Origin: Chiloscyllium plagiosum
Lineage: Eukaryota
NCBI RefSeq assembly: GCF_004010195.1
Contig: NC_057718.1
Location: 94,862,702 to 94,926,701 of the forward strand
DNA: 64,000 bases
Reading direction: 5' to 3'
The position numbers were made by a program, and so were the translations under genes. Shown piece by piece: positions 2,048 through 61,400 of this stretch. The number at the start of each line of letters is the position of its first letter. The stretch's first letter is position 1. A model generated the notes under the pieces. It did no database searches and was not told the DNA's origin. It saw only the letters and a list, made by a program, of their open reading frames with translations.

Positions 2048-2240
2048 TAAAAACAAAACAGTACAGATGCTGGATATCTGAAACAAACACCAAATGCTGG
2101 AAAAACTCAATGGGTCTGTGGAAAGAGAAACAGAGTTAACATTCCGAGTATGGTATGGCTCTTTTTCAGAACTATTGTTTCTCTTGCCACACGTGTGACC
2201 AGACCTGCTGAGTTTCTCCAGTATTTTATGTTTGTTTCAA
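2048..2240. mobile_element. Short Penelope-derived fold-back element (family B: ...gctggaaaaactcagcag...cagagttaac), old
   Basis: Inverted arms tgctggaaaaactca / tgagtttctccagta with a decayed hammerhead-like segment at about 2135-2173; related to copies at 29160 and 57467. Confidence 0.55.
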
Positions 2241-2376
2241 CATTCTCAGGCAGATTGGATTAGCAGGTGACTCGCCTGCAGCTGAGTTAGCACTCAACAA
2301 TATATTGGTATCTATACTGTCTTATCTTGTTTATTCTTGCTCCCAATTTGTATTTTTGTAACCCTACCCCCAATTG

Positions 2377-3008
2377 TGGGGTAGCACAGTGGTTAGCACT
2401 ACCACCTCATAGTGCTATGGACCCAGGTTCAATTCTAGCCTTGGGCATCTGTCTGTGTGGGGTTTGCACATTCTTCCTGTGTCTGTATGCGTTTCCTCCC
2501 ACAGTCCAGAGATGTGCAGGTTAGGTGGTTTGAATCACAGAATCTCTACAGTGTGGAAACAGGCCATTCAGCCCAATAAGTCCACAGTGATCCTCCAAAG
2601 AATAACCCATTCCCCAACCCTATTATTCTACATTTACCCCCGACTAATGTACCCTGCACATCCCTGAACATTATGGGCAATTTAGCATGGCCAATTCACC
2701 TAAACTGCACATCTTTGGACTGTGGGAGGAAACCGGACTACCTGGAGGAAACCCACGCAGACACGGGGAGAATGTGCAAACTCTACACAGACATTCGCCT
2801 GAGGCTAGAATCGAACCCGGGTCCCTAATATGGTTTGGCCATGTTGAATTGTCCACAGCATCCAGAGGGTATGCAGGCTAGGCGAATTAGTCGTGGGGAT
2901 TGCAGAGTTAAAGGAATAGGGCAAGGAGTTGGGTGGGTTACTCCTCAGAGGGTCAGTGTGGACTCGATGGGCCAAATGGCCTGCTTCCCCACTGTAAAGA
3001 TTCTATGA
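2377..3008 (+). mobile_element. tRNA-derived HE1/V-SINE-like element with a second copy inserted in reverse orientation (about 2533-2826)
   Basis: A-box (gcacagtggttagcac) and B-box (ggttcaattc) head, V-domain-like gtttgcacattcttcctgtgtct, and CR1-like tail cctgcttccccactgtaaagattctatga. The inner copy is flanked by a tggtttg direct repeat. Confidence 0.8.
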
Positions 3009-6000
3009 ACTGCTGCAGTCTTATGGCTGCTGATTCTCCATATCCTCTTCAATATTTCCTCTGGAGTATGTTTGTTTGCCAATCTCTGAGCTGGCACTTG
3101 CTAGGAAAGATATTCAAAAAGTGAGTATTTTTTGTCTGCATCACAGGAGCCTGGACATTGCCATTACCTGAAGTGAAGGAGGCAGCTGAGGTCTCTGCAT
3201 CCATCTCTGCCTAAATCATCCCGTCCTGCCCTATTTTCAGTCTGCATCAGGTTTTGAGGTAAAAAGTGTGGCGCTGGAAAAGCAACAGGCAGCATCCGAG
3301 AATCAATGTTTCGGGCATAAGCCTTTCAGGTCATGGTGTTAACATAATACAGCTTTTCCCTGGGTTCTATGTCTAGCTTTAAAAACAACTAAAGTTCTGG
3401 TTACTGAACACCATCGTCAGAATTCTAGAGCTTTCCCCACTCCTTCTTTCCCACAACATGCACAATGAGACAATAGTCCCACTTCCGAAATAGTGGGGGG
3501 AAAACTCAATGTTATTACTAGATTATTTCTGTTATGAAAGTAAGATTGGAGAAAACATTTCAGGTCTAGATCTCATGTTGCTGATCTCTGTCAAAATGGC
3601 ATTGGCTTCTGAATTGGAAGTCAGAGACCTGAAAGAGGTATTGAGTAGTTCACCCACTGCAAATCAGTTTGTGTCATTCACACTAAGGCTAGGTGCTCCA
3701 GATCTTAGGAGACCTAACCAGCCACCACTTAAAGAAAACCTCCTAAAAAAAAGGTCAAATCCTCACAAGCGAAATTATTATATCATTAAAATATTTAATC
3801 AGTCAACCTTATTTCACCCGTTGTCCCACATACATTAAATCCAGCAGTGGTACAGGTTGATGTTTTAGAGTTTTAGAGTGTCAAAGAGCCCACCCACACA
3901 TTTTCGTGAGGGGTTAAAATTCAACTCATTGTTTTCTTCTGTTACTTTGCTTATCAAGTCTCTCTTCATCTGCCTTGAGAGTAGATTAAGTTGGTGGACA
4001 GATTGCCTAGATGATCTCTCTAATGGGACACCAGATCCATTTCTAAAGGCTGTGTAATGATAGTGGTGGTGGGCTGTATGCCTAGAATTGGTAAGCTGTC
4101 ATAGCTCACCAGCTCTATATGGTGCAGTATCAAGCCAGCAGCATATCTGATATCAGGTTGGGAGGGGTTTCTTTCATGTCAGAGCTCATTGGGACATTCT
4201 GTAACATCTGTTGTTTGGTGCAACTGCGATCGAGCAAAGCTGCAGTGCCATTGTAGCACGCTGTCGCATCACTGTGAACAAACTCCAACCTACATTCATG
4301 TGCAATGACTTTCCACTTTTGGCAGCTCTTTTTCTCTCAGATTCACCGGGATCGGCTTTGTTAATGATTTTTACGGTTATCTAAGAAACCTTTCCTCTCT
4401 CAAAGTCCATCTGTGTGGTAATGTGAGTCACATAGGCCTGGTATCCAGGTATTAATGCTGATTATCTATCCTTAAGGCTTCAACTCTTTTTTGATTTAGA
4501 ATTCGATAGATAGTTGCGTACAATCTAATATTCGCAACATTTCCTGGGGCTTTGGAGACCAGCAGTCTAACCACTATAATTACAGATGCTGCTGCCATTG
4601 TCTCTAACCATGCACTCAAACCTCCCTTCCACCTTTAACAGCCATGTCACCCAGGCTTGTTATAATCTTCAGAACAGATCGCAATACCCCATTTTCTTTA
4701 TCCTAAATTACAGTCTCATACATAACATTTTATAAAAATGCATAGTGGTATAAAGAAAATATTGCACTCACTGTAGTTATCACTGAAACTACGTTAAAAT
4801 AAAGAGGTTGGTACACTGTATTCGAAAGATTTTATATGTTACATTTTTTCACAAATGTATAAATCATTCAAATGTCACATTTAATATATATTTTTAAAAA
4901 TCAATTACAATCTACAACACTACATCTATTTTCCAGAATTTGTGCAGATGTTCTTTGTTCAGAACCACTAATTTGCTTTTATCCTACAATTGACTTTGTA
5001 ACTTTGGTGAGGACGCTTTGTGAACTACTTTGGAAAATATGTGGTTTATTTGGGATCTATCAACAAAGCAACATCTGGTCTTTGTCACTGGGAACCATTA
5101 ATGACTTTACTGGGATGATGTGCAAGTCGGGAGTCATTTTGTATAGTTTCTCTGGAGGCCTTGGCCCTAAAAATAAACTGCACTGCTCCACATTGTTGAA
5201 TTAAATGTCACTTTGGACAAATATTTTTTAAACCACAAACTTTGGCTAATGCAGCTGCTTTTTAAAAAAAAACAGGTTTACTAGTTTTCCTAAGACTGCA
5301 TAAATCCAGTTAAAATGTTTTGAGTGAAGCTTAAATCTCTATTGTAGCATAGTGTGTACATGAACTATAAATCTTATTTACATAACTACATCTTACCAAA
5401 AACCATACATTACTGTGCCCTGCCAGATTACAAATTAAATCTAAACAGCTGCATTTGGTAATATCCAGTGCTTTCTTTATTTAACAGTTATTGATTTAAA
5501 ACATTTTTTTTCACTAAATGTTCTTACACCATAGACATGAAGTGAGAGTGACTGCCTTTGACACCTATATCGCATTTGACCAACTGTGGCAACAAGGAAT
5601 CCAAGCAAGGCTGGAGTCGATGGGAAACAGGAGGTAGGGGGGACTTCTTTGCTGTTTGGAATCATACTTAGTGAAAAGGAAAATGACTGTGGTACTTAGA
5701 ACAAATGACATAGAACATTTCAAGTCAGCCGTTTCAGCACCAGAACGTCTCTGCAGCACTTCCTGAGGGTAATGCCCTTGATCTAACCATCTTCAGCTGC
5801 TTCATCAATGATCTTACTTCCACCATAAGGTCAGAAGCTGGTTCTTTGCTGATGAAGGTATAATGTTCAGCACCATTTGTGTCAATCAGATATTGAAGCA
5901 GTCCACATCAAAATGCAGCAAGACTTGAACAATACCAGGTTTGTGCTGAAAAGCAGCAAGTCACATTCATGCTACACAAGTGTCAGGCAATGACCATCTC

Positions 6001-6142
6001 CAAAAAGAGAGGATTTAGCCATGGCTCCTTGACAATGACACAGAACGGGATGATTCATATATATACAGTGGCGAGAAGAGGCTGGGAATACTGCAGCTTA
6101 CCTTCTGATTCCCCGAAGCCAATCCACCATCAATAAGGCACA

Positions 6143-7237
6143 CTATTTGTCATCACTAAACAAAACAAATTAGAGAAAACCTTCAAGACAATCAATAATA
6201 CCCTTACTGGCATATAATTCACTAAAAAGGAGAAAAACAACAACAAACTGCCATTTCTAAATGTCACAGTAGAGCAAACATCCAATGGGCAACTTCAAAC
6301 CAGCGTCTACAGGAAAACAACACACACGGACCAAATACTGAACTACAGAAGCAATCATCCCAACACCCACAAACGAAGCTGCATCAGAACATTATTTCAA
6401 CGAGCCAACACACACTGCAGCACAGAGGAATTACGCAGAGCAGAGGAAAATCACCTATACTGTGTGTTCAAAAAGAATGGGTACCCAATGAACACAATCT
6501 GCCGATTTCTCAGCAACAAACCCAAACAAGCAGACAAAACACGTCCAGAAACCCTAGCCACTCTCCCCTACATCAAAGACATCTCGGAAATGACTGCCAG
6601 ACCAATCAGATCCCTTGGCAACATGATAGCCCACAAACCCACCCACACACTAAAACAGCAGAATAAACTTGAAAGACCTTATACAGACAACAAGCAAAAC
6701 TAATGTCATTTACAACATACTGTGCAAGAACTGTAACAAACACTACATTGGACAAACAGGCATAAAATTAACCACCAGGATACATGAACATCAGCTAACC
6801 ACAAAACGACATGACTCTCTCTCACTCGTATCCTCATATACAGATAAGGAAGGACACCACTTCGATTGGGACAACACATTCATCCTAGGACAAGCCAAAC
6901 AGAGACACGCATGAGAATTCCTAGAAGCATGGCATTCCAACCGGAACTCTATCAACAAACACATTGGGTTAAACCCCATCTACCACCCTCTGAGAAAAAG
7001 AACAAGAAATGGCATCACCGCCGGAAATGACATCACCACAGGAAATGACATCGCCAACCCAAAGAAACCCAAACATATAAATAGAGAGTAGGAATCATCA
7101 GCAGTGCTTCGCCCGGAGGCCCATTGAACATGTTACCTCGTAGGGTGACGAAACGTCTGGAAATCAACCTTTCAGCTCAGCCAGCAAACCTACATCCAGG
7201 ACCTCAACCTGAGCTACAAATCTTCTCAAAACTCGCT
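6143..7237 (+). mobile_element. Penelope-like element, 5'-truncated (RT C-terminus + GIY-YIG endonuclease + 3' pLTR with decayed hammerhead)
   Basis: Translates as LPFLNVTV..VYRKTTHTDQILNYRSNHP..HKRSCIRTLF, then NGYP..LPYIKDISE, then the GIY-YIG motif 'NVIYNILCKNCNKHYIGQTG..L.TRIHEH'. 11-bp TSD aataaggcaca at 6132-6142 and 7238-7248. Confidence 0.9.
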
Positions 7238-8025: not shown

Positions 8026-9120
8026 TACAATGAAAATATGATTCCAGTGCCTGCAAGGTCTCCTCCGAACCACTCACCATCCTGACTGGGAAATGTTCTT
8101 TCTCAATCACTGGGTCAAAATCCTGAAACTACTTCTCTAACCATCATTGTGGGTCTCCTCCGCCAATGGATTCACAGCAGTTTAAAAAGGCAGCTTCCCA
8201 CCATCTTCTTCAGGGCAAATAGGGATGGGCAATAAACGCTGGGGCAGCCAGTGATACCCACATAGAATGAATAAAAATACATACTCCTAACCTTTAATTA
8301 GAAATTCTACACCTTTTAAAGGACCACCATTTTCACAATACCCCCATCTTTTATTTAATTCTTTAATTCAGTCATTGTTTTTTGCCTCATTTTAACACTG
8401 AGCAAGTGGATGGTTTTGAATGGAAATGAATTAAAATATCAGGCATTACATTACTGTCAAGGGACACAAAACCAAAAAGAATCTTAACAATGTAAGTTGC
8501 AGGATTAGTGCAGAACACTGCTTTATGGAGTAGTGGACCTTCTTGGATTGGATCCATAGAAAACGTGGAGTGAGCTCTCTTTGTTTTGAATGTGCTGGCA
8601 TGGGTACCCACTGGGCAATGCCCATTCACTTTCTGGGGGAAAGCACAGAATTTCAATGCAAGATTAAGATTCTGTATGTAGAGTTAAGTGAATAGTGATA
8701 TTCTACTGTTTTATTAATGACCTTCCTTTGATCCCTTTCAGTGCATAACAGGAGGGCAGAGACCAGCTATAAAAGGCAGCCAAGGGTCACTCTAGAGCTG
8801 CGAGCACTGTGATTGAGGGGTACAGCTGGCCTGCATGAAGTATTGTTTGTGAAGGAGGAGTGCCCCACTATAGTCAATGATGTTGTGAGATACTGGGATG
8901 GAATTTAACACCTCGCCCCGTGATGAGTTTAATTATGCATGAGGCCCACATCTGCCCATATTGTGGGGAGGCCTGTGGATTCCCTTCCCATAATGCAGCT
9001 GCTGGAGGCTCAAAGGTGGGGCAATCGATAGTCTGTTCAGGGGCCTCATCCCACTACTGTTGACGTTCTCCAGCTCAGTGCCTAGACAAGAGTTTGGGCA
9101 TTGGAAAAACAGGGCAAGAA

Positions 9121-9222
9121 TGCAGACCGCAGGTGCTGGAGATCAGAGTCGAAGAGTGTGGCCCTGGAGAAGCACAGCAGGTCAGGAGAATCGACGTTTC
9201 AGGCATAAGCCCTTCATCAGAA
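9121..9222 (-). mobile_element. Short Penelope-derived terminus (family A) with an intact minimal hammerhead motif at 9193-9220 on the minus strand
   Basis: The reverse complement reads CTGATGA A GGGC TTAT GCCT GAAAC GTC GATTCTCC. Confidence 0.75.
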
Positions 9223-10175
9223 ACTCTAAGAAGAAGCAATTCCCTTTTGCTGTCAAATCATTACTCGCCTGCAACAAGAGCCCCACGACGGAACCCTCCA
9301 CTATTCATCACTCACCCTGAGTGTCGGATGGGTGCACTACTGACAGCCACCACCACCTGTCCAGTGGCACTGCTGGGCAGCGTACAGCTTCTAACTCTCA
9401 ATTGCTTGGCAATTCTTGGCAGGTGGGACAACTGCCACCAGGGTCCTTGGTGCTTGATCGCAGAGAAGGTCCACTGCTGCCACATTTGTCAAAGGATACG
9501 GCAGGGGCATCCTAAATGAAGTGAATGCTACAGATGCCAAGAGGGATGCTGCCTCTATATGCCCAGGTGGGGCCAGTGTTCTCTGCATTGCCCCAGGGTG
9601 TGAAATACCTTCACGGCACAATTCAGGGAAAGTCATCATTATCAGCAACGAGGAAGAAACCAGAATTACAAATTCAATGGAAGATAAGTGGAGGTTGGTA
9701 GTAAGTACATTAAAATCACACTCCTATGTGTTTTCTCTGCAAAATCTCACCTCAAGTGATCCCAGCTTAGTTTCAGAGACTGGGCTTTCTGATTTGTGAG
9801 GCGTGAAAAACAATAACTGTCACGACCGGGAAAGGAACCCATAACGAAGGATTTCATTATTTTTGTACCCTTACAGATGCAATTAAATGTTTATGAGAGC
9901 TACATCCAAAAAGTTTGTTTTATTAAATTTTCCAAAGGCTCGAAATAGCACAGTGAAAAGCACTGGACAATATTCACTCGACTGTTTTGTACCCACAATG
10001 CGCCATCTAGAGGTGGCATTCATATGTTGCACTGCTTTTCGTGAGGTTTCTCTTTACCCAGGGGGTGAGACACCGACCCCTCCATTAAATACCCCCGATG
10101 GTGTAGGATTCCCTCTGCTATCAGTCACATTCTGAGTAAGCATTGCCAAGCTACAATGTGCAACCAAATTCTATA

Positions 10176-10320
10176 AATTACACAACACCAGGTTTAATCC
10201 AACAGGTTTATTTTGAAGCACTAGCTTACGGAGTGCTACTCCTTTATCAGGTGGTTGTGGAGTACAAGATCGCATGACACAGGATTTATAGCAACACCAG
10301 CTCCTCCACATCATGACAAC
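10176..10320 (-). mobile_element. Short Penelope-derived element (family C: ...ccaacaggtttatttggaagcactagc...)
   Basis: Matches copies at 14495-14643 and 34490-34662; decayed minus-strand hammerhead (ctgataaaggagtagcactccgtaagctagtg). Confidence 0.6.
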
Positions 10321-10529: not shown

Positions 10530-11130
10530 GACCTTGGAGTGCAGGTTCATAGCTCCTTGAAAGTGGAGTCACAGGTAGATAGGATAGTGAAGAAGACGTT
10601 TGGTATGCTTGCCTTTATTAGTCAGTAAAGGAGTTGGGAGGTCATGTTGCAGCTGTTTAGGATATTGGTTAGGCCACTTTTGGAAAACTGCATTCAATTC
10701 TGGTCTCCCTGCTATAGGAAGGATGTTGTGAAACTTGAAAGGGTTCAGAAAAGATTTACAACAATGTTGCGAAGGTTGGAGGGTTTGAGCTACAGGGAGA
10801 GGCTGAATAGACTGGGGCTATTTTTCCCACAGTGGCTGAGGGATGGCATTATAGAGGTTTATAAAATCATGAGGGGCATGGATAGGGTAAACAGTCAAGG
10901 TATTTCCCCTGGAGTGTGGGAGTCCAAAACTAGGGGGCATAGATTTAAGGTAACAGGGGAAAGATTTAAAATGGACCCTATGGGGCAACTTTTTACACAG
11001 AGGATGGTATGTGTATAGAATGATCTGCCAAAAGAAGTGGTGGAGGCTGGTACAATTGCAACATTTAAAAGGCATCCGGTTGGGTATATTTAAGCAAGGG
11101 CTGAGAGAGATATGGGCCAAATGCTAGCAA
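10530..11130 (+). mobile_element. CR1-type LINE 3' fragment (a second CR1 tail follows at about 11690-11826)
   Basis: ORF 10644-11018 'LVRPLLENCIQFWSPCYRKDVVKLERVQKRFT...TRGHRFKV'. Confidence 0.85.
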
Positions 11131-11688
11131 ATCAGACAGGACACCAACTCGTGGAGCGGTTCAGGGAACATTTCTGTGACACACAGACCAAACAACCCCA
11201 TCACCCTGTGGCCAACCACTTCACTTCCCCCTACTACTTCCCCAAGGACATACAAGTCTTGGGCCTCCTCCACCGCTAAATCAAAGCCACCCGCCAACTG
11301 GAGGAAGAAGGCGCCATCTTCCCTCCAACCAACATTAACATCAACTTTCCAAATCTCCCCTCCCCCCACCTCATTCCAGATCCAACCTGCCAAATCGGCA
11401 CTGCTCTCTTGACCTGTCCATCTTCCTTTCCACCTATCCACTCCACTCTCCCCACTGACCTATCACAATTACTCTCCACCTGCATCCACCTATTGCTTTT
11501 CCAGCTATGTTCCGCTCAGCCCCACCCCATCCCCTTATTTAACTCTCAGCCCTTCGTCCCCTACGTTCCTGATGAAGGACCTATCCCCAAAATATCAACT
11601 CTCCTGTTCTTTGGATGCTGCCTGACCTGCTGTGCTTTTCCAACTTTTCGACTCTGACTCCTGCATCTGCAGTCTTCACTTTCTCCTA
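11131..11688 (+). mobile_element. Penelope-like element 3' fragment (family A; GIY-YIG remnant + pLTR)
   Basis: 'RFREH...PVANHF.SP' endonuclease remnant. It ends with cctgatgaagg...ctgcatctgcagtcttcactttctcc, the same terminus as the short hairpin elements. Confidence 0.75.
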
Positions 11689-13755: not shown

Positions 13756-13872
13756 AGGAGAAAGTGATGCTGGAGATCAGAGTCGAGAGTGTGGCGTAGG
13801 AAAAGCGCAGCAGGTCAGACATCATCCGAGGAGCAGGAGAATCAACATTTTGGGCAAAAGCCCTTCATCAGA
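13756..13872 (-). mobile_element. Short Penelope-derived terminus (family A), CpG-decayed hammerhead
   Basis: ggagaaagtga..gctggagatcagagtc...aatcaacattttgggcaaaagcccttcatcag. Confidence 0.7.
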
Positions 13873-14494
13873 TGGTTAGGGGGATCAATCAGATGGATGA
13901 TAGTCAATCAGGAGTGGATAGAGTTGTTCAGGATAGGGGCAACTGGTGGGGGAGATGACCACAGGTCAGAGAACATAAAGCCTTTGTAAGTTAGTAATGA
14001 TGTTGTCATTGTCTATATGAAACAGAACAAATTATTACATTCAGAACAATGCTACACCAATATTTTGTGTTAATTCAATATCAACAGGACATCAAGACAT
14101 CAGGACATCAATGCTGCCTGCAAATTATTCTGGACAATAAAATGACAACCGACACAATTGTTTCTCTTAACAATAGCAGCAGTCTGACCTCTAGTGGACA
14201 GTGCATGAAATTCTGTAAAAATAATCAAGAGTTGTAATGTCAAATATTAGAAGTTCTAGCGTAAACAAATTTCAAGAATTTTATTTTATGTAATTTCCAG
14301 ATTACGTTTACTAAATTTTACAATTTTTCTAAATAAATGTACATTAGTAATATTGTACAGCTTGAAAAGTTTTCTGAAGTCAATAAGACTGAAACCATCA
14401 TCTTTATGTGGCTTAACCATTGACTCCAATCTTTTCTGTGGCACCTGTCCAAAACCTTCCAAATTGTTGTATTTTTCTGTGTCTGATTATACCC

Positions 14495-14643
14495 ATGATT
14501 TGGAGGTGTCAGTGTTGGACTGGGGTGGACAAAGTTAAAATTCACACAACACCAGGTTATGGTCCAACAGGTTTATTTGGAAGCACTAGCTTTCCAAGCG
14601 CTGCTCCTTCATCAGGTGATTCCTCAACTGTGTGATTTTTAAC
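14495..14643 (-). mobile_element. Short Penelope-derived element (family C) with a hammerhead motif at 14584-14618 on the minus strand
   Basis: The reverse complement reads CAC CTGATGA A GGAGC AGC GCTTG GAAA GCTA GTG; short inverted end (tgtgtgatttttaact). Confidence 0.7.
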
Positions 14644-16503: not shown

Positions 16504-18611
16504 GCTTACACTTAATACCTTCCCTTTCTTAATATGATAGCTCCTTAGACGATCAGAAGTAAGTCAAGTGAACCTTCTCTGAACTGCTTCTAAAGCAATT
16601 ATCTAAAGTAGGATCAAAACTGTTCAGAGCACTCCAGATGTTGACTCACAAATGCCCTATATGAGCTGCAGTGAAACTTCCCCACATTTATATTCCATTC
16701 CCCTTGACACTTTTATGTAAATGTAATAATGGAATGGAATAATTAAAAATAAAAATTACATACAAACACAAGTGAAGCATCACAAAGTAGCGCTCAAATG
16801 GAAACCATGGCAATGATGTCTCAATTAAGACGTGAAAGTGCTTTGTGTCATCTGTTTCTTAAGGTAACAAGATAAGAGCGGACAAGAAAGCAGTGCAACA
16901 CCTATATTGTAACTCGCATCAAATCCCACTCTCCATCACCTCTGTGTTTGCTCCCGATCTGGCAAAGCTTCACTGTTATAATTTTACAGTTCCCTCAAGG
17001 CCTCTCCTCTCCCTTGCGTGATCTGTTCCAGTCCTACAACAAACCGCTTAACATCAATAAAATAATGGGGGGGTCCAATATGCTTTTTCAAAGGCTTTGT
17101 CAATTTATGCTGCCACATTGAAAACTTTGTACATGTGCATCCCCGGGTCTCCTTGCTTTTGGACACTCTTTAAAATAGGACCATTTAATTCTGATTGTGG
17201 AATTGTTACAGAAGACCATTCAATCCCTTGTCCGTATGCTTTTCATTGCTTTCCCTAAATTACACTAACTATAATTAAGGGTGCTTGTGTGTTATATATA
17301 GTTGACTTATTGAAAAATCATGATGTCAATTCAAATCAAACAAGTAATCATAATTTATTAAATAGTATAAAATAATAAAACTAAGTATAACACAATAATG
17401 AATATATCAGTGCATAAATAATTACAACAGGTTGCAAAATGCTAGTTTCTTTAACTTACAGAATAAGAGTGAAAGGTTCACTGTACTTTGGAATTTGTAT
17501 AACCTCCAATGGATCAGGTGTTGTCAGGCTTGGTTCAATAAATTCTCACATACCATTCATGAGAATTATAAAGTAGCAGATTGGGCTGTCTCATAGCCTA
17601 TGTTGCATTTGATAGTTAACAACTGAAAGGGTTAACTGGCACAAGAGAAGATCCACCCATCAGGGGATCAAGTACTGTTCCTGGGAAGAGTTAATCAATT
17701 TTCCATTGCGATTTCTATCTTACTCAAAGGTTATGTGTACCTAAAAACTGAAAGAACTATGAATGCTGTAAATCAGAAGCATCAGAAGCAAAAACAGCAG
17801 GTCTGGCAGCAACTGTGGAGAAAAATCATAGTAAACGTTTCATGTCCAGTGACCCTTCCTCTGAACAGGTGTGTGTTCATACTCTTACATCCAGCCTGAC
17901 GTTTCAAAAGAGACTCTCATGAGCTCAGATGCAATATCATTAGCTATTAACTAATAAATAACCATATATTTTTCAACAACAACTGAACCTCACTTCTGAC
18001 AAATATTTGGTGTGGACATTTCTTCTCATTTAGGAATCAATAACTTAAACTAATACCAATAAGAAGGATTGAGTCATAGAGTTTTTATAGCACAGGATCA
18101 GGGCCTTCAGCCCATCATGTTCATCAAACATCCCTCTATTCTAATCCCATTTTCCAGCACTGAAGCTACAGAAAGCAGCTCAGATGGTACCTGTGAGCAC
18201 AACCACAACATACACCAGTCTATTTGCCGATGGTTTCTTTTATGTAATTAGTAATATCTTACCATTCCCCAGGACATAACTGTTGTCCCCAAGAGGGCTG
18301 CAAATCTAGCAGGGATGGTTCTGGAGTCTACGTGAGATGGAGATTGATAACCAGGCAGACCATAAATATATTTTATTGTTTGTTTCAATTTATTCAGTTT
18401 TATCCGTTGAAAATATTGACAAAGATTGGATGGCAAGGGTGTGCAAGTCTGGGCTTTTTCAATCTGTTTGGGTATGTTATTACTCTGATCTGGTGAAGGT
18501 GGGAACTCAACCCAGGCCTCCTGGCTCAGAGACAAGCTCTTAACTTTCTTTCAAAACATGCTTCCGACAGGCCGAGCTTCCCCAGTAATTTGCTTTTACT
18601 TGAGGGATGAC

Positions 18612-26181: not shown

Positions 26182-26647
26182 TCCTTTACTGAGAAGTGAC
26201 AGAGCGGAAGCAGAAAGCCCTGGAATTTGCTGGAGTTAATGAAAAAAGTCTTTGTCCTACTAATTGCAACACTGATAGAGGATAATGATCAACAAAGTTG
26301 ATGCACTGCCAGTTTTTGACATTGTATTTTTAAAGAGTGGAAAATGTAAAGATACATCATGATGCTGCTTTATGCCAGAGATTTGAAATGATAAAAGGCA
26401 ATTGAAGAACACATTTCTATTATGACCTGGACAGAGCAGAGGACTGCTTTTTGTCCACTTTTTTTATTTACAGACATTCAATAGGAAGCATGCACAGCTT
26501 GCCTATTCCAACCAGATGGCACAGATCTACCAGAGTCACTCCATTCACCAGGACCTCACCACTATCAGCTTTTCACAGTGCAAGTTAAAATGTTTACACA
26601 AAAACAGAACATTGGCGGAAAAGCTCAGCAGGTATGGCAGCATCTAC

Positions 26648-34489: not shown

Positions 34490-34664
34490 GATGCTTTGGA
34501 GATGCCAATGTTGAACTGGGGAGTACAATGTTATAGTCCAACAGGTATATTTGGAAGCACTAGCTCTCGGAGCGCACTCCTTCAGGTGGTTAAGGAGCAG
34601 CACTCCAAAAGCTAGTGCTTCCAAATATACCCGTTGGACTATAACCTGATGTTGTGTGATTACT
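34490..34664. mobile_element. Penelope-derived fold-back element (family C) about 160 bp upstream of the first coding exon acceptor
   Basis: Inverted arms gttatagtccaacaggtatatttggaagcactagc / gctagtgcttccaaatatacccgttggactataac, flanked by a ttaggagc direct repeat. Confidence 0.75.
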
Positions 34665-39654: not shown

Positions 39655-40100
39655 AGATTCCCTACAGTGTGGAAGCAGGCTATTTGGCCCATCAAGTCCA
39701 CACTGACCCTCTGATAAACATCCCACCCAGACCCATCCCATCTCTGTAATCCTGTATTTCCTAGGGCCAATTCACCTAACTTGCATGTCTTTTAATTGTG
39801 GGAGGAAACCAGAGAACCAGGGAAAAACCCATGTAGGGCACAGAGAGAATGTGGGCTGAAAATGTGTTGCTGGAAAAGCGCAGCAGGTCAGGCAGCATCC
39901 AGGGAACAGGAGAATCAACGTTGATTCTCCTGTTCCTGGATGCTGTCTGACCTGCTGGCCTTTTCCAGCAACACATTTTCAGCTCTGATCTCCAGCATCT
40001 GCAGACCTCACTTTCTCCTCACAGAGAGAATGTGCAAACTCTACACACAGGTTCATGTCACTGTGAAGCAGCAGTGGTAACCATTAAGCCACCATGCCGC
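39655..40100 (-). mobile_element. HE1/V-SINE-like element (minus strand) interrupted by a Penelope-derived palindrome (39854-40019)
   Basis: Matches the SINE at 2377; the insert is flanked by the 15-bp TSD cacagagagaatgtg (39839-39853, 40020-40034). Confidence 0.8.
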
Positions 40101-43086: not shown

Positions 43087-43291
43087 TTGAAACTTTATTG
43101 CTGGAACAGCACAGCAGGTCAGGCAGCATCCAGGGAACAGGAGATTCGACGTTTCGGGCACAGGCCCTTCTTCGGCCTGTGCCCGAAACGTTGAATCTCC
43201 TGTTCCCTGGATGCTGCCTGACCTGCTGTGCTGTTCCAGCAATAAAGTTTCAACTTTGATCTCCAGCATCTGCAGACCTCACTTTCTCCTC
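43087..43291. mobile_element. Young Penelope-derived fold-back element (family A) with a 16-bp TSD
   Basis: TSD caaggcagtatagcag at 43071-43086 and 43292-43307; about 82-bp inverted arms 43085-43166 / 43174-43255 with one mismatch. Confidence 0.88.
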
Positions 43292-45209
43292 CAAGGCAGT
43301 ATAGCAGCCTACTTGTAACCCTTCTTTAATGCCATACTACAGATGGCTTTTTGAAGGCAATAGATGTATCATGGGATGCGTGATTATCATTACTTCCATC
43401 TGCTGTGCAACTGTAACCAACCATGTTGCCAGTAATATAGCACCATGTTTAGACATTGTGTATTCAGGATTTCAATACCTGACCTAGTTTGACATGTCAG
43501 TGCAGTAATGCTTTGTTGGAGGAGCCATCTTTTTAGATGGCATGTTGAACTGAATCCCTGGCTGACTGTTCAAGGAATCACTGCATCTTACTGAAAAATA
43601 GTAAAGGGAAGACACACAATTCTGTAGGAAAGCCAACACTATTTAAAGAAAAACGTTTTTCAGTTATCCAGGTCAATATTCACTCCTCAGCCACGAAGAA
43701 AATGTAGGCTGATCACTCATTCATTCATTTGCCTTCTATGTACAAATTTGTCTGTCATATTTCCCACATTAAAAACTGCAAACGCACTACAAGGATATAT
43801 TGGTTATAAAGCGCTTTTGGATGTCATCATGTGGTAAGGCACTGCATTATTAGATTCCTTCTATTTTTCCTGCCCCTTGTGAAAGTACTTGCGTTTAGTT
43901 GTGTTTTGAACTTGAGATCTCTTTGTGGGGAACAATTCCATATCATACAGTGCTTTGGAATGTCAGCAAAAGATTTACCTTCTGGTGAATATTGATTAGC
44001 AGGAACATGTAATATTTTGTATCTGACATGGATGCATACGTCTTAAAAATACTGTTTCAAGTATTTAGTTCAATGCACTAACAATAAAATCCAAAATGGT
44101 TTTCTTAGCAAACACCCTGAAATACATTTGCAAATATTCTTTCTCCAAAGTTGTCTATTTTTTCATGTTCCTGATTCAAATGTTTCTGCAACAAGATCAA
44201 TTAATCCCATGAGTTTATTTTATTGAACACTTTGACACTAAAAATACCCAGTGTAAAATGCAGCTTTGAAGTGATTTGAATTTTAGCTGCATTGCATATC
44301 CCACCAACTCTCAAGCTGTCCCCATAATACAGAGTGTGGGCTAGTGCCAAAATTGGCAGGGAGCTAATGATATTCACCTAATTAATACTCAGTTGAACTC
44401 ATTAAAAGCTGGGTTGACCCCAACAATACCCCAACAATACCCTGCCCGTGCCAAACTAGCTGATGTAGGCAGTCAGACAGGAGTGGGCAGGCTGCTTTAG
44501 AAGACCTATGTGAATAAAGGTGGGAAGGAAGGGGTGTATATCATTACAGGTGTGCCCATGTGTGCATCAGGTGTATTGCTCCATCGAGATACCATCCCAA
44601 CCTTCCTTCCAACCTAATCAAACCTTAGTCCTACAGTCTGTTCTCGTCTTCCATAGGGTCGAGGCTCCCTCCCCACTTTAAAACCCAGGAATTGGCTTCT
44701 CAAGAAGCCATTACCACCTCAGACCTTCTTCTATCCTGGCAGTGCCAGGACTGAGCGCTACCGAAGGGCCTGTTTCCACACTGTAAATAATCTACTGGCC
44801 ATCAATTTGACCTGCAGCTCTCATGGGCAGAACATCTTCACCAAGGGCAGAAATTCCACAATTAGGCAATGTAGCCTACACAGATTGTTATGGATGCAGG
44901 CCCAGACAGTTCCTGATTGATCAGATCACTGCCAACTTTTGATCTATAGAGAGAGCAGACCACTTCTCTATAATATTTTGCTCATTGAATCTCGGAGCTC
45001 AAGTAATCAAATACACTTTGAAGAAAATCATGAATGCAGACAAAGGTCCAACGAGTATTGTTTGGTTTTACTAACCTAAGTTTTTTTTTCCCACAAGCAA
45101 GCACCATGATTGTACAAATTTAAAATAATAGAATGGCTACAATGCTGGAGTCCATTCGACATATTGAGCGTGTGTCAATTAATTACAAGGACAAAGTGGC
45201 TGTGTCCAT

Positions 45210-45735
45210 TATTCCTGATGTGGTCTCCTCTACATTGGGGAGACAGGACGGCAACTTACGGAAAGGTTCAGGAAGAAATTTCTGGGACACGCACCCAACA
45301 ACTTCACTGCTCTGTGACCGACCACTTCAATTCCCCTTCCCATTCTGCCAAGGACATGCAAGTCCTGGGCCGCCTGTACCACCAAATCCAAGCCACCCAA
45401 CACCTGGAGGAATGCCTCATCTTCCACCTTAAGATCCTCCTACCACATGGCATCAATGTTGATTTCACTAGTTTCCTCATCTCCTCTTCCCCCATTTTAT
45501 CCCAAATCGAATCCTGTAACTCAGCACCGTCCTACCTGTCGATCTTCCTTCTCACCAATCCGCTCTGACCTATCACCATCACCCTTACCTTCATCGACCT
45601 ATCACATTTGCGGCTACCTTCTCTCTTTCCCCCCCCCCCCCGATGAAGGGCTTATGCCCAAAACATCAACTCTCCTGCTCCTCAGAAGCTGTCTGACTTG
45701 CTGTGCTTTTCCAGTGCCACGCATTTTGACAGACA
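45210..45735 (+). mobile_element. Penelope-like element 3' fragment (family A; GIY-YIG remnant + decayed hammerhead at about 45641-45670)
   Basis: 'LHWGDR...VTDHFNSPSHSAKDMQVLG..EECLIFHL..LLPHGINVDF'; cgatgaagggcttatgcccaaaacatc. Confidence 0.8.
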
Positions 45736-50207: not shown

Positions 50208-50809
50208 TAGATAATTTCCTGATATCACATCCAAAGTGCTGAAACAAAAGGTATTGCTGGCACAAAATAAATATTATAAATCATTGTATTATAATTAATT
50301 GCACTAGTGATCTGGCAACTATATATCATATTTTCTAGATGATCCATGCTGTACAATAACTAGCAATGTTGGCTATAGAAGAAGTATTCTATATTTAAAT
50401 TTAGTTGTGCCATTGTATACAGCATTGAGCAAAGACTGAACTACACATTGTGACCACTAAAGTTAAGTTTTGCTTTGTTCTTATATGCTGTTAACTTTTA
50501 AATTGTAGGAAGTGATTTTATTTAATCAGTGAGTTACTGGTTGAATTTTAAAAAAAACTCAACACTGGCATTTCAGTTTCTAAGATGTCCGAACATCTAT
50601 ATGAATATACCTTACACATTCCAGACCCAGTCAGAATACAGTCAGAATGTCTAGAAGAACATAGCAAAGACAATCACCTTAAAAGAAGATGAATGACTAC
50701 AATTTCTGACCCATTCAAAAAACATAGAACATAGAAGAATACAGCGCGGTACAGGCCCTTTGGCCCTCGATGTTGCACCGATCCAAGCCCACCTAACCTA
50801 CACTAGCCC

Positions 50810-51001
50810 ACTTCTCCCCACCCCCACCCTCCTCTAGCTTATCTCTCCACGCTTCAGGCTCACTGCCTTTATTCCTGATGAAGGGCTTTTGCCCGAAATG
50901 TCGATTTCGAAGCTCCTTGGATGCTGCCTGAACTGCTGTGCTCTTCCAGCAGCACTAATCCAGAATCTGGTTTCCAGTATCTGCAGTCATTGTTTTTACC
51001 T
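50810..51001 (+). mobile_element. Penelope-derived 3' terminus (family A) with a near-intact sense-strand hammerhead at 50875-50902; preceded by a minus-strand CR1 tail (50723-50810)
   Basis: ATTC CTGATGA A GGGC TTTT GCCC GAAA TGTC GATT; same subfamily as 25406. Confidence 0.75.
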
Positions 51002-51661
51002 ACGTGATATCAGTTGAATGAACCTTCTCTGGACCGCCTTCAATGCCACTGTGTATTTCCTTAGAATAAGGACTCAAAACTGCTCATAGCATTCTAACTG
51101 TGGTCTGATGAAGGCTTTGTATAATTTTAGTTAAACCTCACTACTTTTATGCACCATTCACTTTCTGTGGATAGCTCTGCTGGTGACTTAGAAGTTTTGT
51201 ATCTCCGTTATCAACATCACCTTGTCAAGTGAAAGTCACAATTGGAATTGAACGATCAGTTAAGTAGCAGGATTCATGCAGTGAAGATGATTTAGAAAAA
51301 GGGTCTATCAGAAATTGGCTTGCCATAGTCAATATAAAAAAAGTCTTCACACAGCTCCAAGGTCTATGCCAAGTCAGCTGATTTCAGTGAAGGACAGTGA
51401 TGGAGTATTTCAAGTAACACCTTCAAGTACATACAAAAACACAGTGAGGATTTCCGCTCCTAATACTATTCAGTGATCTCTGCAGCAAATTGTGTAATGA
51501 TGAATGTCCAATTAGGGCAAGAATTAGGTGCCATGTGCTTACCTCCATGGTAAACTAATCTGTTCTCTGGATAGCCTTTCATCTGGCATCCTCCATAAAC
51601 CTGAGCTTATCCAAAACTCTGCTGCGTGTTTTCTAACTCATATTGAGTTTTCTTCACCCCT

Positions 51662-51780
51662 CAGGAGAAAGTAAGGACTGCAAATGCTGGAGATCAGAAT
51701 TGAAAGCTGGAAAAGCACAGCCGGTCAGGCAGCATCCAAGGAGCAGGAGAATCAACGTTTCGGGCATAAGCCCTTCATTG
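51662..51780 (-). mobile_element. Short Penelope-derived terminus (family A) inside an L2 remnant
   Basis: ggagaaagtaaggactgcaaatgctggagatc...aacgtttcgggcataagcccttca; flanked by ttcacccct / ttcatccct. Confidence 0.7.
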
Positions 51781-57466: not shown

Positions 57467-57699
57467 AAATAAAAACCGAAAGAACCGCAGATGCTGTAAA
57501 TCAAACAAAACAGAAATTGGTGGAAATGCTCAGCAGGCCTGGCAGCATCTGTGAAGAGAAATCAAAGTTAATGATTCAGGACCGGTGACCCTTTCTCCGA
57601 ACATTCTGAGGAAGGGTCTCCAGACCCAAAACATTAACTTTGATTTCCTTTCACTGATGCTGCCAGGCCTGCTGAGTGTTTTCAGCAGCTTCTGTTTTT
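57467..57699. mobile_element. Penelope-derived fold-back element (family B) inserted in the Gypsy 3' LTR
   Basis: 14-bp TSD atgtcagaagttct at 57453-57466 and 57700-57713; inverted arms; CTGAGGA A GGGTC TCCA GACCC aAAAC aTT AAC at 57606-57638. Confidence 0.85.
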
Positions 57700-60549
57700 A
57701 TGTCAGAAGTTCTGTTCACTCTAAGAGCTCGCTCTGAGAAAGCTGAATCAATCTTAAGTACTCTCCACATAAAAATAAAAGATGGCTTGGTGACGGACTA
57801 CCAGTCTCTGTGGAGTTATTTCAAATTGCATTTTGTACCTTGCAAAATCTCAGCACCAAATTACTTTATAACTAATTCAGTATTTCTATAGTGTAATTAC
57901 TGTTGTAATATAGGAAATGCTAATTTAAACATGGCAATGTACCATAAGCAATTTATGATGATCAGATGATCTGTTTTTAGTGATGTTGATTGAATGTAAA
58001 TTTGAACCAAGAGATTAAGGGAAGCTTTTCGAAGTAGTGCTATGGAATCTTTTTCATCTACCTGAGAGAATAGACAGAGCCCTGGGTATAATGTCTCACT
58101 CAAAAGTTGGAACATTGACAGTGTAGCAGACCCTCAGTACTGCACTGGGAGTGTCAGTCCAGATTTTTTGCTCATGTTTTAGGAGTAACAACTTGAACTT
58201 ACAATATCCTTGACTGAGAGACAAAAAGTATTCCCTATTGAGCTTTGCTACACTGGGACCTGGGTCAGCTTTTCATTTCCAGAATGCAAGTCTGTTTTGA
58301 CTACCTGTCTCCACTGTTCCCCGAAATGAGAAGGGCTGATTCAGCATAGTCCAGTATTGAAACTTGAGATTGTGTTGGCCATTAGTGGTTAATTTTCACA
58401 TTGGAGCAGTGAACAGGTTGTTAGTTCTGTACTTCTTGTTGGGTGATAAATGCAGAGATACTGGTGATGGAAAGGTCACTCATATTACACCGGTGGGAAA
58501 TGTAATAATATTACTTCCAATCACTGCAATAAATTTTACTTAGCTCTCTGCAGGAACCCCTGAAGTATTTAGATATGCAGACATACAGGAGGTGGGCGGT
58601 TGGTGTACCTAAGGGAAATTACTGCATTACCTGACTGTCAGTAATTACTACATAATGTAATATTTAACTAAAGGTAGTCACGTTTAAGGAAGCTGTGGCA
58701 TTATATTTCAGGGCCAGAGTATCGGAAAGATTAATAAACAGATGAGGTTTTGTTACAGCTCTGTGTCATTTAATTGCATTGATGGAAGACTGAGTTTCGA
58801 ACTGTTTCATTGCAACCACAGAGTCACTGATTTTTTATTTCTAGACAATAATGAGCGATGCTGTCCTTTGAGTTCTTGCTTCTACAGTTCCACCTTTTGC
58901 TTATGATAGATTCCACAGACAGAAACAATATTTGACCCCTCACCCCAGTGTGAACCTCGATAATACACTGGTCAAGGTTCTCCAAACGATAAAAGGATCT
59001 GACATGAGGTAAAAATAAACTATTTTCTGGAGTTAGAAAATCAGGAAGAAAGGGATATAAAATTGGAGGGAAGGCCTTTCAGAAGTGAAATCAGGAAGCA
59101 CCTTTTCACACAATGGGGAGTGAAAATGTGAGTCTTCCTTTTCCCAAAGAGCTGGGGTGGTGGGAGTCAATTATAGCTATCAAGACTGAGATTGATAAAT
59201 ATTTGTTTATATGACTATCATAAGACATGGAGCAATGACTTGTAAATGGAGTTGCGGTGTAGCTCAGCCTTGATCTAATTATATTCCAGAGTGTGGTGCT
59301 GGTAAAGCATAGCAGCATCCGCGGAGCAGGAGGATCGACGTTTCAGGAATGAGGTTGTGAGCCGAGGGGGTGGTGACATAAATGGGAGGGGGGTGGGGCT
59401 GGGGGGGAAGGTAGCTGAGAGTGTGATAGCAAGGTTTCCTCCTAGCCCTGAACTGACTTTTGACGTATTACTTTCTGGAGGGGCAAGATGCCACAAATGA
59501 TTCTGAGTTGATCTTCACCCAAAAAGAAAGAGCTTTCACATCTTACACTTCTTCAAAATGCCTAAAAATGCTTTACCGACAATGAAGTGCAATTGAAGTT
59601 AAACTGCTAAAGTCCATTTTAGAGATGTTGATTGAAGGAAAATATTAGCCAGAACACTGGGAAAAACTTCCCTGCTTTAATTTGTAAAACGATAGTGGAA
59701 CCTTTGCATCCACCTGAGAGGACAGAGGAATGCCTTTCTTTAATGTTTTAACTGAAGGCAATCGTCACTGACAATGAAGCACTTCCTCAGTACTGTATAG
59801 GAGCATCAGCCTTGATTCTGTGCTCTAATCCAGGGCTTAAATCCTTGATTTCTGAGCATCAGAGACACAAATACTACCAGTAAGCCAAGGGTTATTATCA
59901 AGCGTTCACAAGTGGGCATTTCTGAGCTGAGGTAATTGAATTGCTGTTAGGAGCAGAATCCCTGGCTGATTTAGGTTAACCTCACCAATTAAGTGGTGGC
60001 ACACTTACATCTGTCACTTCAAAGTTGTGGTCAAACTGCGTTCCTGGACTTGATCAACATAGTCCTCAGGGAGTGCTACAACGTTGGACTTGCATTTCCT
60101 ATCCTGTCTCTGTTGTCATAGACATTAAAGACCACACTATTTGAAGTCAACCCGAAAGTTCCCCTTGTCCCTAGTCAATGTGTTCCCTCACCTATAATTC
60201 CTGATTCTTTTGCTGGTGTGCTTAGAAATGGCTGCTACATTTACCTACAAATAACTAGCTCTCAAAATAATTTATTGTGCATGAAATGTTTTGGCATTAT
60301 AGTATTATATATGATATCATAACATAACTTGATGCCCACATGTCTGTGGGCAGAGACAAGTAATTCTGTTCTAGATTTTAGAGGGAGCAGATGTATCTGT
60401 ACCAGCTGCCTCAGATCCTAGTAACTATGCCTGACCAAATGTAATTGTACTTCTAAAGTATAATATAGAAAAAGAGAGTGAGAAGAAACTCTCCAGTTCT
60501 GGCAGGATCTGTGGACTGTTGGACCAAAACCTGGTGTTGTGTGATTTTT

Positions 60550-61400
60550 AACTTGGAGGGGAAAACAGAGTCAACATTTCAAGTCCAAAGGACTCAACTT
60601 TGAGCTTGAAGATGGCTAGAAAATAGTAATTTTTATGTTGGTAGAAAAGGTTAGGAGGAGAAAGTGGAACAAATGATGAAGATGCCCAGAACAAAAGATA
60701 ACAGTGATAAAGGAGCGATTGAGATGTAAGATACATGTGTGAATGGTGAGTTTGAAAAGAAGAAAATATGTCAGCTTTGCTGAGAGCAAAGTTAACAAGA
60801 CACAAACAATATGTGAAAAGGTAATTAAAATGGAGGATGTCGTTCACGCTCTGAAGTTGTTTAAGTTGGTGACGAGTTCTGGAAGCTGTAAAGTATCGAG
60901 ACAAAAAAATGTGCTATTCCTCCAGCTTCTGTTAAACTTCAATGGAATACTGCAACAGACCAAGAACAGTAATGTTGGCATGACAACAAAAAGATTTATT
61001 GGAATTGCAAGCAACTGGAAGGTGACAGAGTAGAGATGTTCCTCAAAATAGTCACCCAATCCTTGTTTAGTTTTGACAATGTGCAAACAGCTGCTTTGTC
61101 AGCAGCAAACACTAGATTGAAAGAAGTACAAATGAATCACTATTTCAAATGGAAGATATGTTTGCGGTCTGAGTAAGTGAGGAGGTAAGAGGGCAAGTGG
61201 TACACCTTCTGCGATTACATGAGGATGTGGCATGGGAGGGTGAAAGAAGGGTGGACTAGGATTTCATAGAGGGAAATCTCTGAGGAATATTGACAGTAGA
61301 TAGGAAGGAAAATATGTTTGGTAGTGGCACCTTGTGAGAATTGGCAGAAAAGGGAGTGGATGATAATTTGAAGAGGTAGATTGCTGGGGTGGAAAATATC
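60550..61400 (-). mobile_element. Old Penelope-like element fragment (family B, GIY-YIG remnant)
   Basis: Minus strand 'HIVKTKQGLGDYFEEHL.SV' endonuclease-like remnant, next to the family-B terminus (gaaaacagagtcaacatttc). Confidence 0.55.

Follow-up and report, generated by a model that had tools for sequence, protein, structure and literature searches.

Decayed minimal hammerhead motifs in the terminal repeats of Penelope-like elements from a shark

Introduction

A 64-kb stretch of shark DNA (the window, by which we mean the whole of the sequence analyzed) had been predicted to carry hammerhead motifs at 20 positions, in mostly short, non-autonomous copies of at least four Penelope-derived families, which raises the question of what these insertions are and whether the motif still acts in them. 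Minimal hammerheads in the terminal repeats of metazoan Penelope-like elements (PLEs) were described by Cervera and de la Peña in 2014, with 56 published motifs in the supplement, and the sections of that paper considered here also report single copies dispersed from truncated PLEs and pairs on opposite strands (PMC4209133). An inverted copy with a one-sided tail is the insertion form given for PLEs in the parts of two further accounts used here (PMC3846280, PMC8557442). The role of the hammerhead in PLEs is unsettled, published cleavage being weak or protein dependent; in an Anolis PLE, RT starts internally at the tail and the hammerhead is dispensable for insertion in vitro (PMC11167929). 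Many short insertions that start before the motif, and not at the cut site, provide a cheap test of whether the cut RNA is ever a template.

Results

Three PLE lineages in the window

We found 26 PLE insertions, which make up 8.5% of the window. All 20 of the cited positions proved to be copies of PLE terminal repeats, each lying within a copy of the family (A, B, C, or D) that had been named for it, and no match was obtained when the reversed window was searched with the family consensuses. The count of four families did not survive: in a 123-nt alignment the consensuses of A and B are 66% alike (E = 9e-9), and the two are sister subfamilies of one lineage, leaving three lineages. Several copies (marked "new" below), together with the inverted-pair architecture and the target-site duplications (TSDs), had escaped the original prediction. 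Strands are given except for head-to-head palindromes.

6142..7237 (+), D: 5'-truncated Poseidon/Penelope-clade PLE remnant with RT thumb, GIY-YIG, and terminal repeat (tblastn P0001/P0003)
7121..7160 (+), D hammerhead: helix I CCA/UGG, stem II of 6-7 bp, ACGU palindrome, GUC site
3262..3330 (-), A stub: CUGAUGA box with a 3-nt deletion
9120..9224 (-), A stub: no core base lost, G10.1-U11.1 wobble
11115..11688 (+), long A copy: GIY-YIG C terminus (tblastn P0026, 59%, E 1e-20), pyrimidine-rich UTR, hammerhead, and tail; G12 mutated
13756..13876 (-), A copy: mutation at G12, position of the 5' end uncertain
25408..25535 (-), A stub: starts at U4, C3 lost
32381..32530, A head-to-head palindrome: tail on one arm, 12-13 bp TSD
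39854..40020, A head-to-head palindrome with its fold at the helix-III palindrome: lacks the core, 15-bp TSD; new
43085..43291, A head-to-head palindrome, young: arms identical at 81/82, tail on one arm, 14-16 bp TSD
45190..45730 (+), long A copy: GIY-YIG remnant, UTR, and hammerhead; U4 and G12 mutated
50805..51002 (+), A copy preceded by ~70 nt of UTR: complete core, broken helix-III palindrome (AUGU)
51660..51779 (-), A stub: begins within the first of the core boxes
59287..59420 (-), A copy with upstream UTR: stem II deleted; new
2044..2240, B head-to-head palindrome, GAGUC/GACUC stem variant: second arm beginning at the 3' strand of helix I, 8-bp TSD
17735..17867 (-), B stub: mutation at U4
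23672..23737 (-), B stub: C3 mutated; new
26598..26645 (-), B fragment lacking the hammerhead; new
29151..29390, B head-to-head palindrome, decayed: TSD not found
31869..32082 (+), B stub, then a partial tandem copy (32006-32082, new) whose unit lacks the core
39185..39325 (-), B stub: 14-bp TSD
57467..57700, B head-to-head palindrome joined at helix I: plus arm misses only core G12, 14-bp TSD
60456..60607 (-), B stub split by an opposite-strand C tail fragment (60516-60560); new
10181..10292 (-), C copy: TATAAA lying 40 nt before C3, hammerhead, GU-rich run, AATAAA at 10212-10207; G8 and A13 mutated
14500..14621 (-), C stub, tailed: complete core, G10.1/G11.1 mismatch
34495..34661, C head-to-head palindrome: 9-12 bp TSD

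The presence in the window of several lineages of minimal type-I hammerhead-bearing PLEs is supported. Their predicted Penelope origin stands directly for D and A, through coding remnants: D retains what is left of an RT thumb and a GIY-YIG domain, at 84% to a PLE protein of Stegostoma, and a GIY-YIG C terminus lies upstream in 2 of 12 A insertions, the PLE proteins upstream of A and D being 24% identical to each other. It is less direct for the other two, as no coding remnant is joined to B or C within the window; B is taken for a PLE because of its homology to A, and C, provisionally, on the basis of its architecture. At E 0.001, Pfam gave no family in 11 of 14 frames. The D remnant has frameshifts and stops, reaches 22.4 bits for Pfam GIY-YIG (E 1.5e-4) against a cutoff of 22.6, and is flanked by a 10-bp TSD (6132 and 7238). 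As had been predicted for the GIY-YIG element, its CTGA box is mutated: the D hammerhead carries two core mutations (C3 and G8), with TATAAA 48 nt upstream of C3, and the homolog P0003 reads ADDV..GDETS across the motif, which is compatible with an intact box. The CxxC motif of the RT-endonuclease linker is present in P0026, the nearest protein, and absent from the window remnants.

The motif is intact in consensuses and damaged in copies

Script-built consensuses of A, B, and C each contain a full minimal type-I hammerhead with its core (CUGANGA and GAAA..UH) intact; consensuses lacking the CUGANGA/GAAA core, which were to count against the prediction, were not what we found. An extra base between A9 and stem II and a G10.1-C11.1 closing pair occur in all three consensuses and in D, and helix III is a loopless palindrome (ACGU in A, B, and D; AGCU in C); the palindromes, the extra base, and the NUH sites are as originally described. 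Helix I, which closes the motif, is longest in B (4 bp); families C and D have 3 bp each, and A has 2 bp. The claim that the insertions share the core is true of the A, B, and C consensuses, but only 3 of the 20 cited copies (9220 minus, 50875 plus, and 14615 minus) keep all 11 invariant core bases. These three have other defects (a G10.1-U wobble, a broken palindrome, and a G10.1/G mismatch, respectively), and none of the 20 cited copies matches the full hammerhead model.

We scanned the window with a descriptor that allowed at most one core mismatch and required a stem II of at least 4 bp and the helix-III palindrome, helix I not being required. It returned 4 sites, one of which (59556) is not a family member, versus 0.4 in 10 dinucleotide shuffles, and with exact boxes 2 sites versus 0.3. 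The Rfam scan that had been proposed did not recover the motif: cmscan of the window, with E values of up to 10 allowed, produced 10 matches, none of them to a hammerhead family, and the two best (MIR2118 and MIR860, far below the gathering score) are two of the palindromic insertions. The stems had also been described as covarying. Among copies, covariation did not exceed that of shuffles, either in family B (nine arms of decayed copies; 0.188 versus 0.178 shuffled, with 191 of 500 shuffles as high) or in a 16-row alignment of A, B, C, and D in which D is misaligned and C shifted by one (0.242 versus 0.236). Between families, the helices do differ yet pair: taking the four families together, 11 of 12 helix I positions are paired, with differing letters (binomial p 2e-6, or 2e-4 with G-U allowed), a post hoc hand count to which D contributes a single copy and in which A and B are related. 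The three unrelated lineages have only the core in common, helices I and II differing yet pairing. At the level of sequence, it is these between-family differences, and only these, that argue for a hammerhead structure.

Predicted folds varied among the families. The minimum-energy structure of the B consensus contains helices I and II, whereas the hammerhead is not the predicted minimum for A (-7.2 versus -11.4 kcal/mol) or C (-8.8 versus -9.9 kcal/mol), and in A, B, and C alternative dimers are predicted to be more stable than the double hammerhead. A metagenome scan yielded 13 loci with an A/B-type motif and no other similarity to the window, one of which adjoins a PLE endonuclease remnant; because these loci were chosen by pattern, their alignment was left out of the pair counts. 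The viral contigs searched gave no matches.

Copies are CpG decayed and probably inactive

Mutation rates were higher at CpG than at other sites in family A (0.32 versus 0.13; Fisher p 2e-9), family B (0.44 versus 0.18; p 3e-6), and family C (0.25 versus 0.07; p 0.03), in line with the predicted CpG decay, and the expectation that most copies are inactive is likewise supported, nearly all having core mutations. Cleavage by the solo copies is unlikely, because nearly all have such mutations (G12 of the motif sits in a CpG), because they have no tandem partners, and because in the long palindromes the motif would be buried in a hairpin. The A copy at 50805..51002 is the best candidate for residual activity. 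The window copies are best read as PLE insertion products that are truncated, CpG deaminated, and inactive.

Insertions start at the front of the motif

The pLTR layout comprises the hammerhead, 60-100 nt of downstream sequence, and an optional tail of ~35 nt. Seven insertions are head-to-head palindromes with fold-back junctions that differ from one to the next; tails lie on one arm only, and 6 of the 7 have clear TSDs of 8-16 bp. Duplications scoring at least 9 flank 8 of 22 intervals tested, versus 4 of 300 random ones, although one of the eight (C10220) overlaps element sequence. TSDs were not found for most single-arm A stubs or for 17735-17867, 29151-29390, and 31869-31999. Past the C stub at 14500..14621, 16 nt from the end of the element recur in inverted orientation at about 14630-14645. 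The C palindrome at 34495..34661 lies ~100 bp upstream of a BTB-zinc-finger open frame.

By hand count, the starts of 16 of the 26 insertions fall within about -6 to +3 of C3, and none starts at the hammerhead cut site. The B arms have a sharp 5' boundary at about -4 in common, placed by loss of similarity. A splice acceptor was considered as the cause of the 5' boundary and rejected, as the short copies have no upstream exon in common. Same-strand core-bearing arms are at least 744 nt apart, the motif is in none of the 13 Tandem Repeats Finder rows in the window, and neither polymerase III A/B boxes on the sense strand nor a tRNA gene or tRNA-like head was found in any consensus.

Sequencing reads gave depths relative to unique DNA of ~240,000x (A), ~25,000x (C), and ~18,000-30,000x (D), order-of-magnitude values from summed contig depth, which does not equal copy number. 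At the 9220 site, each DNA run shows ~1,000 contigs whose loose ends agree at only 0.36-0.37. The A insertion at 9120..9224 is also present in organism B, where X12 contigs 14 and 15 each extend from one of the unique flanks and reach 35 and 38 bases into the element. In RNA, 290 reads reach upstream of 11600, and their consensus spans the core and the cut site; run X21 showed no read-end pile-ups, a weak test in that cut products would scarcely appear in a single-cell library made from poly(A) RNA. The same RNA run has 567 poly(T) loose ends from family C, whose reads are polyadenylated 13-15 bases past AATAAA (at about 10198-10193 in the copy at 10181..10292).

Discussion

The insertions are very probably pLTRs of three endonuclease-bearing PLE lineages: putatively Neptune-type A/B, C, and Poseidon-type D. 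Neptune-type is a provisional label for A/B, drawn from the CxxC feature named in the portion of PMC8557442 used here rather than from a tree. In this mechanism, the RT/endonuclease of the parent element would nick the target, cDNA synthesis would begin at the tail and usually stop at the front of the hammerhead, which would still be uncut, and the cDNA would often fold back and copy itself, giving head-to-head arms. As for the stop, the chances are about even that the template RNA starts there; a stall of RT at the folded motif is a weaker candidate, and master copies of the short insertions' own are weaker still. Going by the literature, the motif of the parent element is probably a slow dimeric or protein-assisted ribozyme.

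The main rival, implied by the original prediction, is that the short copies are SINE- or MITE-like non-autonomous mini-elements with their own masters, using PLE proteins in trans. The A terminal module is ~70x deeper than the endonuclease remnant of the same copy (summed contig depth, which gives no copy number), the B arms have a common sharp boundary, and C has TATA-like and poly(A) signals and polyadenylated reads, all of which such elements would explain. However, the short copies resemble ordinary PLE insertion ends, the junctions of the seven palindromes vary by copy, short and long A copies have one module in common, the consensuses have no sense-strand A or B box or tRNA-like head, and C copies continue beyond their own poly(A) site, so that a polyadenylated mini-transcript cannot be the template; a separate mobile family of this kind is improbable.

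We give still less weight to non-LTR retrozymes, that is, self-cleaving, circularizing tandem units spreading via circular RNA. Relatives of PLE terminal repeats of this type are reported in vertebrates, one chondrichthyan included, in the part of a preprint used here (bioRxiv 10.64898/2026.07.22.740005), but the motif is in no tandem-repeat row, the second unit of the sole partial B tandem lacks the core, the same-strand arms are far apart, no copy begins at the cut site, and the motif is minimal and not the canonical form described for retrozymes in the sections of PMC7229834 considered. That the likeness is an accident, with a conserved terminal repeat holding two short boxes by chance, would fit the lack of an Rfam hammerhead match, covariation no higher than in shuffles, and competing folds for A and C; it is hardly credible given three unrelated lineages with only the core in common and helices that differ yet pair, a motif 3' of the GIY-YIG remnant (the published position), and the same motif at 13 metagenome loci otherwise unlike the window, one adjoining a PLE endonuclease remnant.

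Returning to PLE insertion as the source of the copies, we suggest, tentatively and with less than even confidence, that the shark PLE terminal repeat is LTR-like, with a TATA-like box 33-48 nt upstream, a start at the hammerhead front, and, in family C, a functional poly(A) signal close behind the hammerhead, the stubs mapping where RNA starts and RT begins. RT from the tail would then run to a capped, uncut 5' end, making the stubs a fossil map (of the order of 100,000 copies); hammerhead cleavage would not be in the in vivo insertion path, and family C stubs would be a large donor pool of poly(A) sites for host transcripts. The Drosophila virilis Penelope has a TATA-less internal promoter and a start well upstream of the motif, as described in the part of PMC2377424 used here, which conflicts with the proposed start at the hammerhead.

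The motif is real, but it is of a kind previously described in many animals; with multifamily spread and inverted insertions also known, the finding as stated is ordinary. In the sections of PMC4209133 considered, the same features recur (CUGANGA plus an extra base, G10.1-C11.1, GAAA, a loopless palindromic helix III, NUH, and a short helix I), as do the presence of several consensus families in one genome, a majority of lone motifs left by truncated PLEs, and pairs on opposite strands. The rows there for Acropora and Nematostella are similar to family A, those for Clonorchis to D, and the one for Chrysemys, which has a downstream AAUAAA, to C; the helix I of A, with only 2 bp, is unlike those motifs. 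The density is higher here (26 insertions per 64 kb versus ~4,000 descriptor matches per coelacanth genome and ~9,000 per Xenopus genome), a comparison that is not like for like, since those are intact motifs.

The 5' truncation, adjacent inverted copies, palindromic junctions, TSDs, and a 30-40 bp tail at one end only agree with the PLEs of Arkhipova et al. 2013 (PMC3846280) and Craig et al. 2021 (PMC8557442); most insertions here are the terminal module alone, starting at the hammerhead front, a clustering that the portions of those accounts used do not describe. The Poseidon of Anolis carolinensis (Frangieh et al. 2024, PMC11167929) shares its clade type with D and has a terminal-repeat hammerhead, a tail as the RT start, and an uncut RNA template; it is intact and assayed, whereas here there are only decayed genomic copies, and A/B are provisionally Neptune-type. 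Non-LTR retrozymes, with up to 120,000 copies in axolotl, are likewise short, non-coding, hammerhead-bearing kin of PLE terminal repeats in the parts of PMC7229834 and bioRxiv 10.64898/2026.07.22.740005 considered, but they are arranged in tandem, head to tail, and have circular RNAs of unit length, whereas the copies here are solo or head-to-head with TSDs. Finally, the 40 species in the sections of PMC4209133 used here include no cartilaginous fish, whereas the DNA described here is from a shark, and the range of the motif given there is widened to cartilaginous fish families.

Number, integrity, and decay of the copies

We searched the window with script-built consensuses of the four families (A to D) of Penelope-like element (PLE) terminal repeats, using the reversed window as a control, and counted by hand 26 insertions (12 A, 9 B, 4 C, and 1 D), which together make up 5,436 bases, or 8.5% of the window; the reversed window gave no matches. 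All 20 positions cited in the original prediction lie in copies of the families it named, and its observation of hammerhead-bearing, Penelope-type sequences is real and was correctly recognized, whereas lineage count, integrity, and covariation were claimed too strongly. The copies had been said to share the core. A complete minimal type-I hammerhead is indeed present in each of the A, B, and C consensuses, but all 11 invariant bases are present only in two family A copies (9220− and 50875+) and one family C stub (14615−), each of which has some other defect.

A structure descriptor with exact boxes found 2 sites in the window versus 0.3 in shuffles; allowing one mismatch and requiring the palindrome gave 4 versus 0.4, with one of the four outside the families (10 shuffles each). 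Decay of the copies accounts for this modest enrichment. The suggested Rfam scan of the window gave no match to a hammerhead model. The proposed CpG decay was borne out, as CpG positions are mutated 2.4 to 3.5 times as often as other positions. The chemistry of CpG decay is established, and since the conserved C11.1 followed by G12 forms a CpG, the hammerhead general base (G12) is a decay hot spot. Three independent copies belonging to two families have lost 3 nt of the CUGAUGA box to an identical slippage deletion (at 3328, 32468, and 34585, minus strand).

Stem pairing and relationships of the families

Stem II varies between families in both letters and length (4, 5, 5, and 6 to 7 bp), and its second pair in B forms a G-C, G-U, A-U series among copies. 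The case for covarying stems is weaker than originally claimed. The covariation scores of genomic-copy alignments were equalled or beaten by 191 of 500 and 212 of 500 shuffles (the second alignment had D misplaced and C shifted), but pairing at the first three positions of helix I is kept at 11 of 12 across families (hand count, post hoc, p = 2e-6). Helix I was absent from the original account of A and lay outside the requirements of the descriptor scan. Among A, B, and C, predicted energies favored the hammerhead fold for B only, and the double hammerhead was not the best predicted dimer in any of them. These predictions are in line with the published weak activity of the minimal hammerhead class and give activity no support.

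Four families proved too many as lineages: the A and B consensuses align at 66% over 123 nt, and A and B are therefore one lineage. C and D have only the hammerhead core in common with the other families in the consensus comparison, and window copies of C have no coding remnant attached. The nearest relatives of the window PLE remnants are in Stegostoma, Chiloscyllium, and Hemiscyllium, which makes a carpet-shark origin of this vertebrate DNA probable. The D remnant is annotated as follows:

D element: 1.1-kb remnant with RT thumb and GIY-YIG, hammerhead at its end, flanked by a 10-bp duplication, 84% identical to a Stegostoma protein

As originally noted, the CTGA box of D is mutated (C3 and G8 are changed); in a homolog, the translated sequence spanning the motif would allow an intact box. 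Three 18-bp tandem units (7002-7056) directly follow the GIY-YIG frame in the 3′ end of the element. In two copies, A is preceded by a GIY-YIG C terminus of a type other than D's. The nearest protein to this remnant shares 24% identity with the D type and contains a CxxC motif in its linker, and on that linker, rather than on a tree, we call the A-attached element putatively Neptune-type.

Insertion architecture and a proposed mechanism

Seven insertions are head-to-head palindromes, missed in the original prediction, with arms 82 to 99% alike and a tail on one arm only. Duplications of 8 to 16 bp flank six of the seven; among 300 random intervals, 4 score at least 9 and 14 at least 8. Palindrome, one-sided tail, and duplication are an insertion form already described for PLEs (PMC3846280 and PMC8557442). 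The junctions vary in site (helix I, stem II, the helix-III palindrome, or further down), and the second arm was therefore probably made afresh at each insertion.

By hand count, 16 of the 26 insertions start at about −6 to +3 of C3, 6 reach upstream, and 3 start only beyond the core, with 1 start uncertain; no insertion starts at the cut site. The B 5′ boundary was inferred from pairwise identity, which is 0.46 to 0.75 at −1 to −4 and 0.14 to 0.36 beyond. At 60456-60607, a family C tail fragment sits within a family B stub, and C was thus active after B at that site.

We propose that parent PLEs would be transcribed through the terminal repeat and that reverse transcription would begin at the tail, by analogy with the Anolis element, for which PMC11167929 describes in vitro initiation at the tail and a protein-assisted hammerhead dispensable for insertion. 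cDNA synthesis would then halt at the front edge of the hammerhead (the region around C3), often fold back, and integrate at a staggered cut, with decay of the copies afterward. We give even chances to the idea that the front-edge stop is the start of the template RNA. TATA-like boxes lie 40 nt (C), 48 nt (D), and 33 nt (A; one copy, variant) upstream of C3. The layout of Drosophila virilis Penelope, with a TATA-less internal promoter and an intron before the motif (PMC2377424 and PMC4209133), counts against a start at the hammerhead. More doubtful is a reading of the terminal repeat as LTR-like, its uncut short 5′ end serving as template and the repeat donating poly(A) sites. Solo copies are unlikely to cleave, because cores are mutated, a tandem partner is absent, and palindromes form hairpins (predicted at −62 to −176 kcal/mol).

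Sequencing reads and the family C poly(A) site

Four of 24 sequencing runs were compared with window positions 6950-11720. Summed contig depth of the A module was roughly 10^5 times that of unique DNA and roughly 70 times that of the endonuclease portion belonging to the same copy; these rough figures are not readable as copy number. A second organism, whose flanking contigs diverge by 3 to 4%, also carries the A insertion at 9120-9224. In one raw RNA run (X21, about 2% sampled), the A consensus continued across core and cut site in 290 reads, and no pile-ups of read ends were listed. Poly(T) loose ends at 10198 in 567 X21 reads place poly(A) 13 to 15 nt past the family C AATAAA:

10198-10212 (minus strand): putative family C poly(A) signal, comprising AATAAA, the poly(A) point, and then a GU-rich run

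The three window C copies spanning that point have no genomic A-run there. These reads, from one sample, represent any copy at least 80% alike and may derive from few loci; they show C-type sequence serving for polyadenylation at some place in the genome. C copies run past this site, and their template was therefore read-through RNA.

Surrounding sequence

34765-36174 and 48393-49433 (plus strand): two long open frames, from either a GZF1-like BTB zinc-finger gene or a pair of neighboring paralogous pieces

The first frame encodes BTB and C2H2 fingers and the second an acidic stretch and fingers. The interval between the frames holds several PLE palindromes, and another is located some 100 bp upstream of the BTB-encoding frame. 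A GC-rich stretch resembling a CpG island (19870-20620) is likely a host promoter. The many LINE 3′ fragments (10529-11089, 18617-18972, 27858-28718, 37120-37734, 46064-46523, 55358-55860, and 62241-63257) we take to be a CR1-like family; a remnant of a separate LINE (21000-22700, minus strand) has a frame matching Pfam ALKBH8_N. Broken open frames at 52858-57100 resemble an LTR-retrotransposon gag/protease/RNase H/integrase remnant; all three frames tried against Pfam gave no match. A degenerate 22-bp minisatellite at 12701-13357 has a 44-bp higher-order period and long minus-strand open frames.

Comparison with known systems

A degenerate A/B pattern matched no loci in viral contigs and 13 in metagenomes. 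Apart from the motif, these loci have no relation to the window; one adjoins a PLE endonuclease remnant. In three (L002:570-630, L006:570-630, and L009:560-630), the motif follows an inverted copy of itself, resembling the shark palindromes. Within literature including few subscription papers, and neither repeat databases nor Lünse et al. 2017, we found nothing on shark PLE hammerheads or PLE terminal-repeat poly(A) signals. Cervera and de la Peña described this motif in 2014 (PMC4209133), together with the presence of several families in one genome, scattered single copies derived from truncated PLEs, and pairs on opposite strands; the 40 species listed there include no cartilaginous fish. 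For a single chondrichthyan genome, a 2026 preprint (bioRxiv 10.64898/2026.07.22.740005) reports both retrozymes and PLEs. High hammerhead abundance has a precedent in the axolotl, with up to 120,000 hammerhead retrozymes (PMC7229834).
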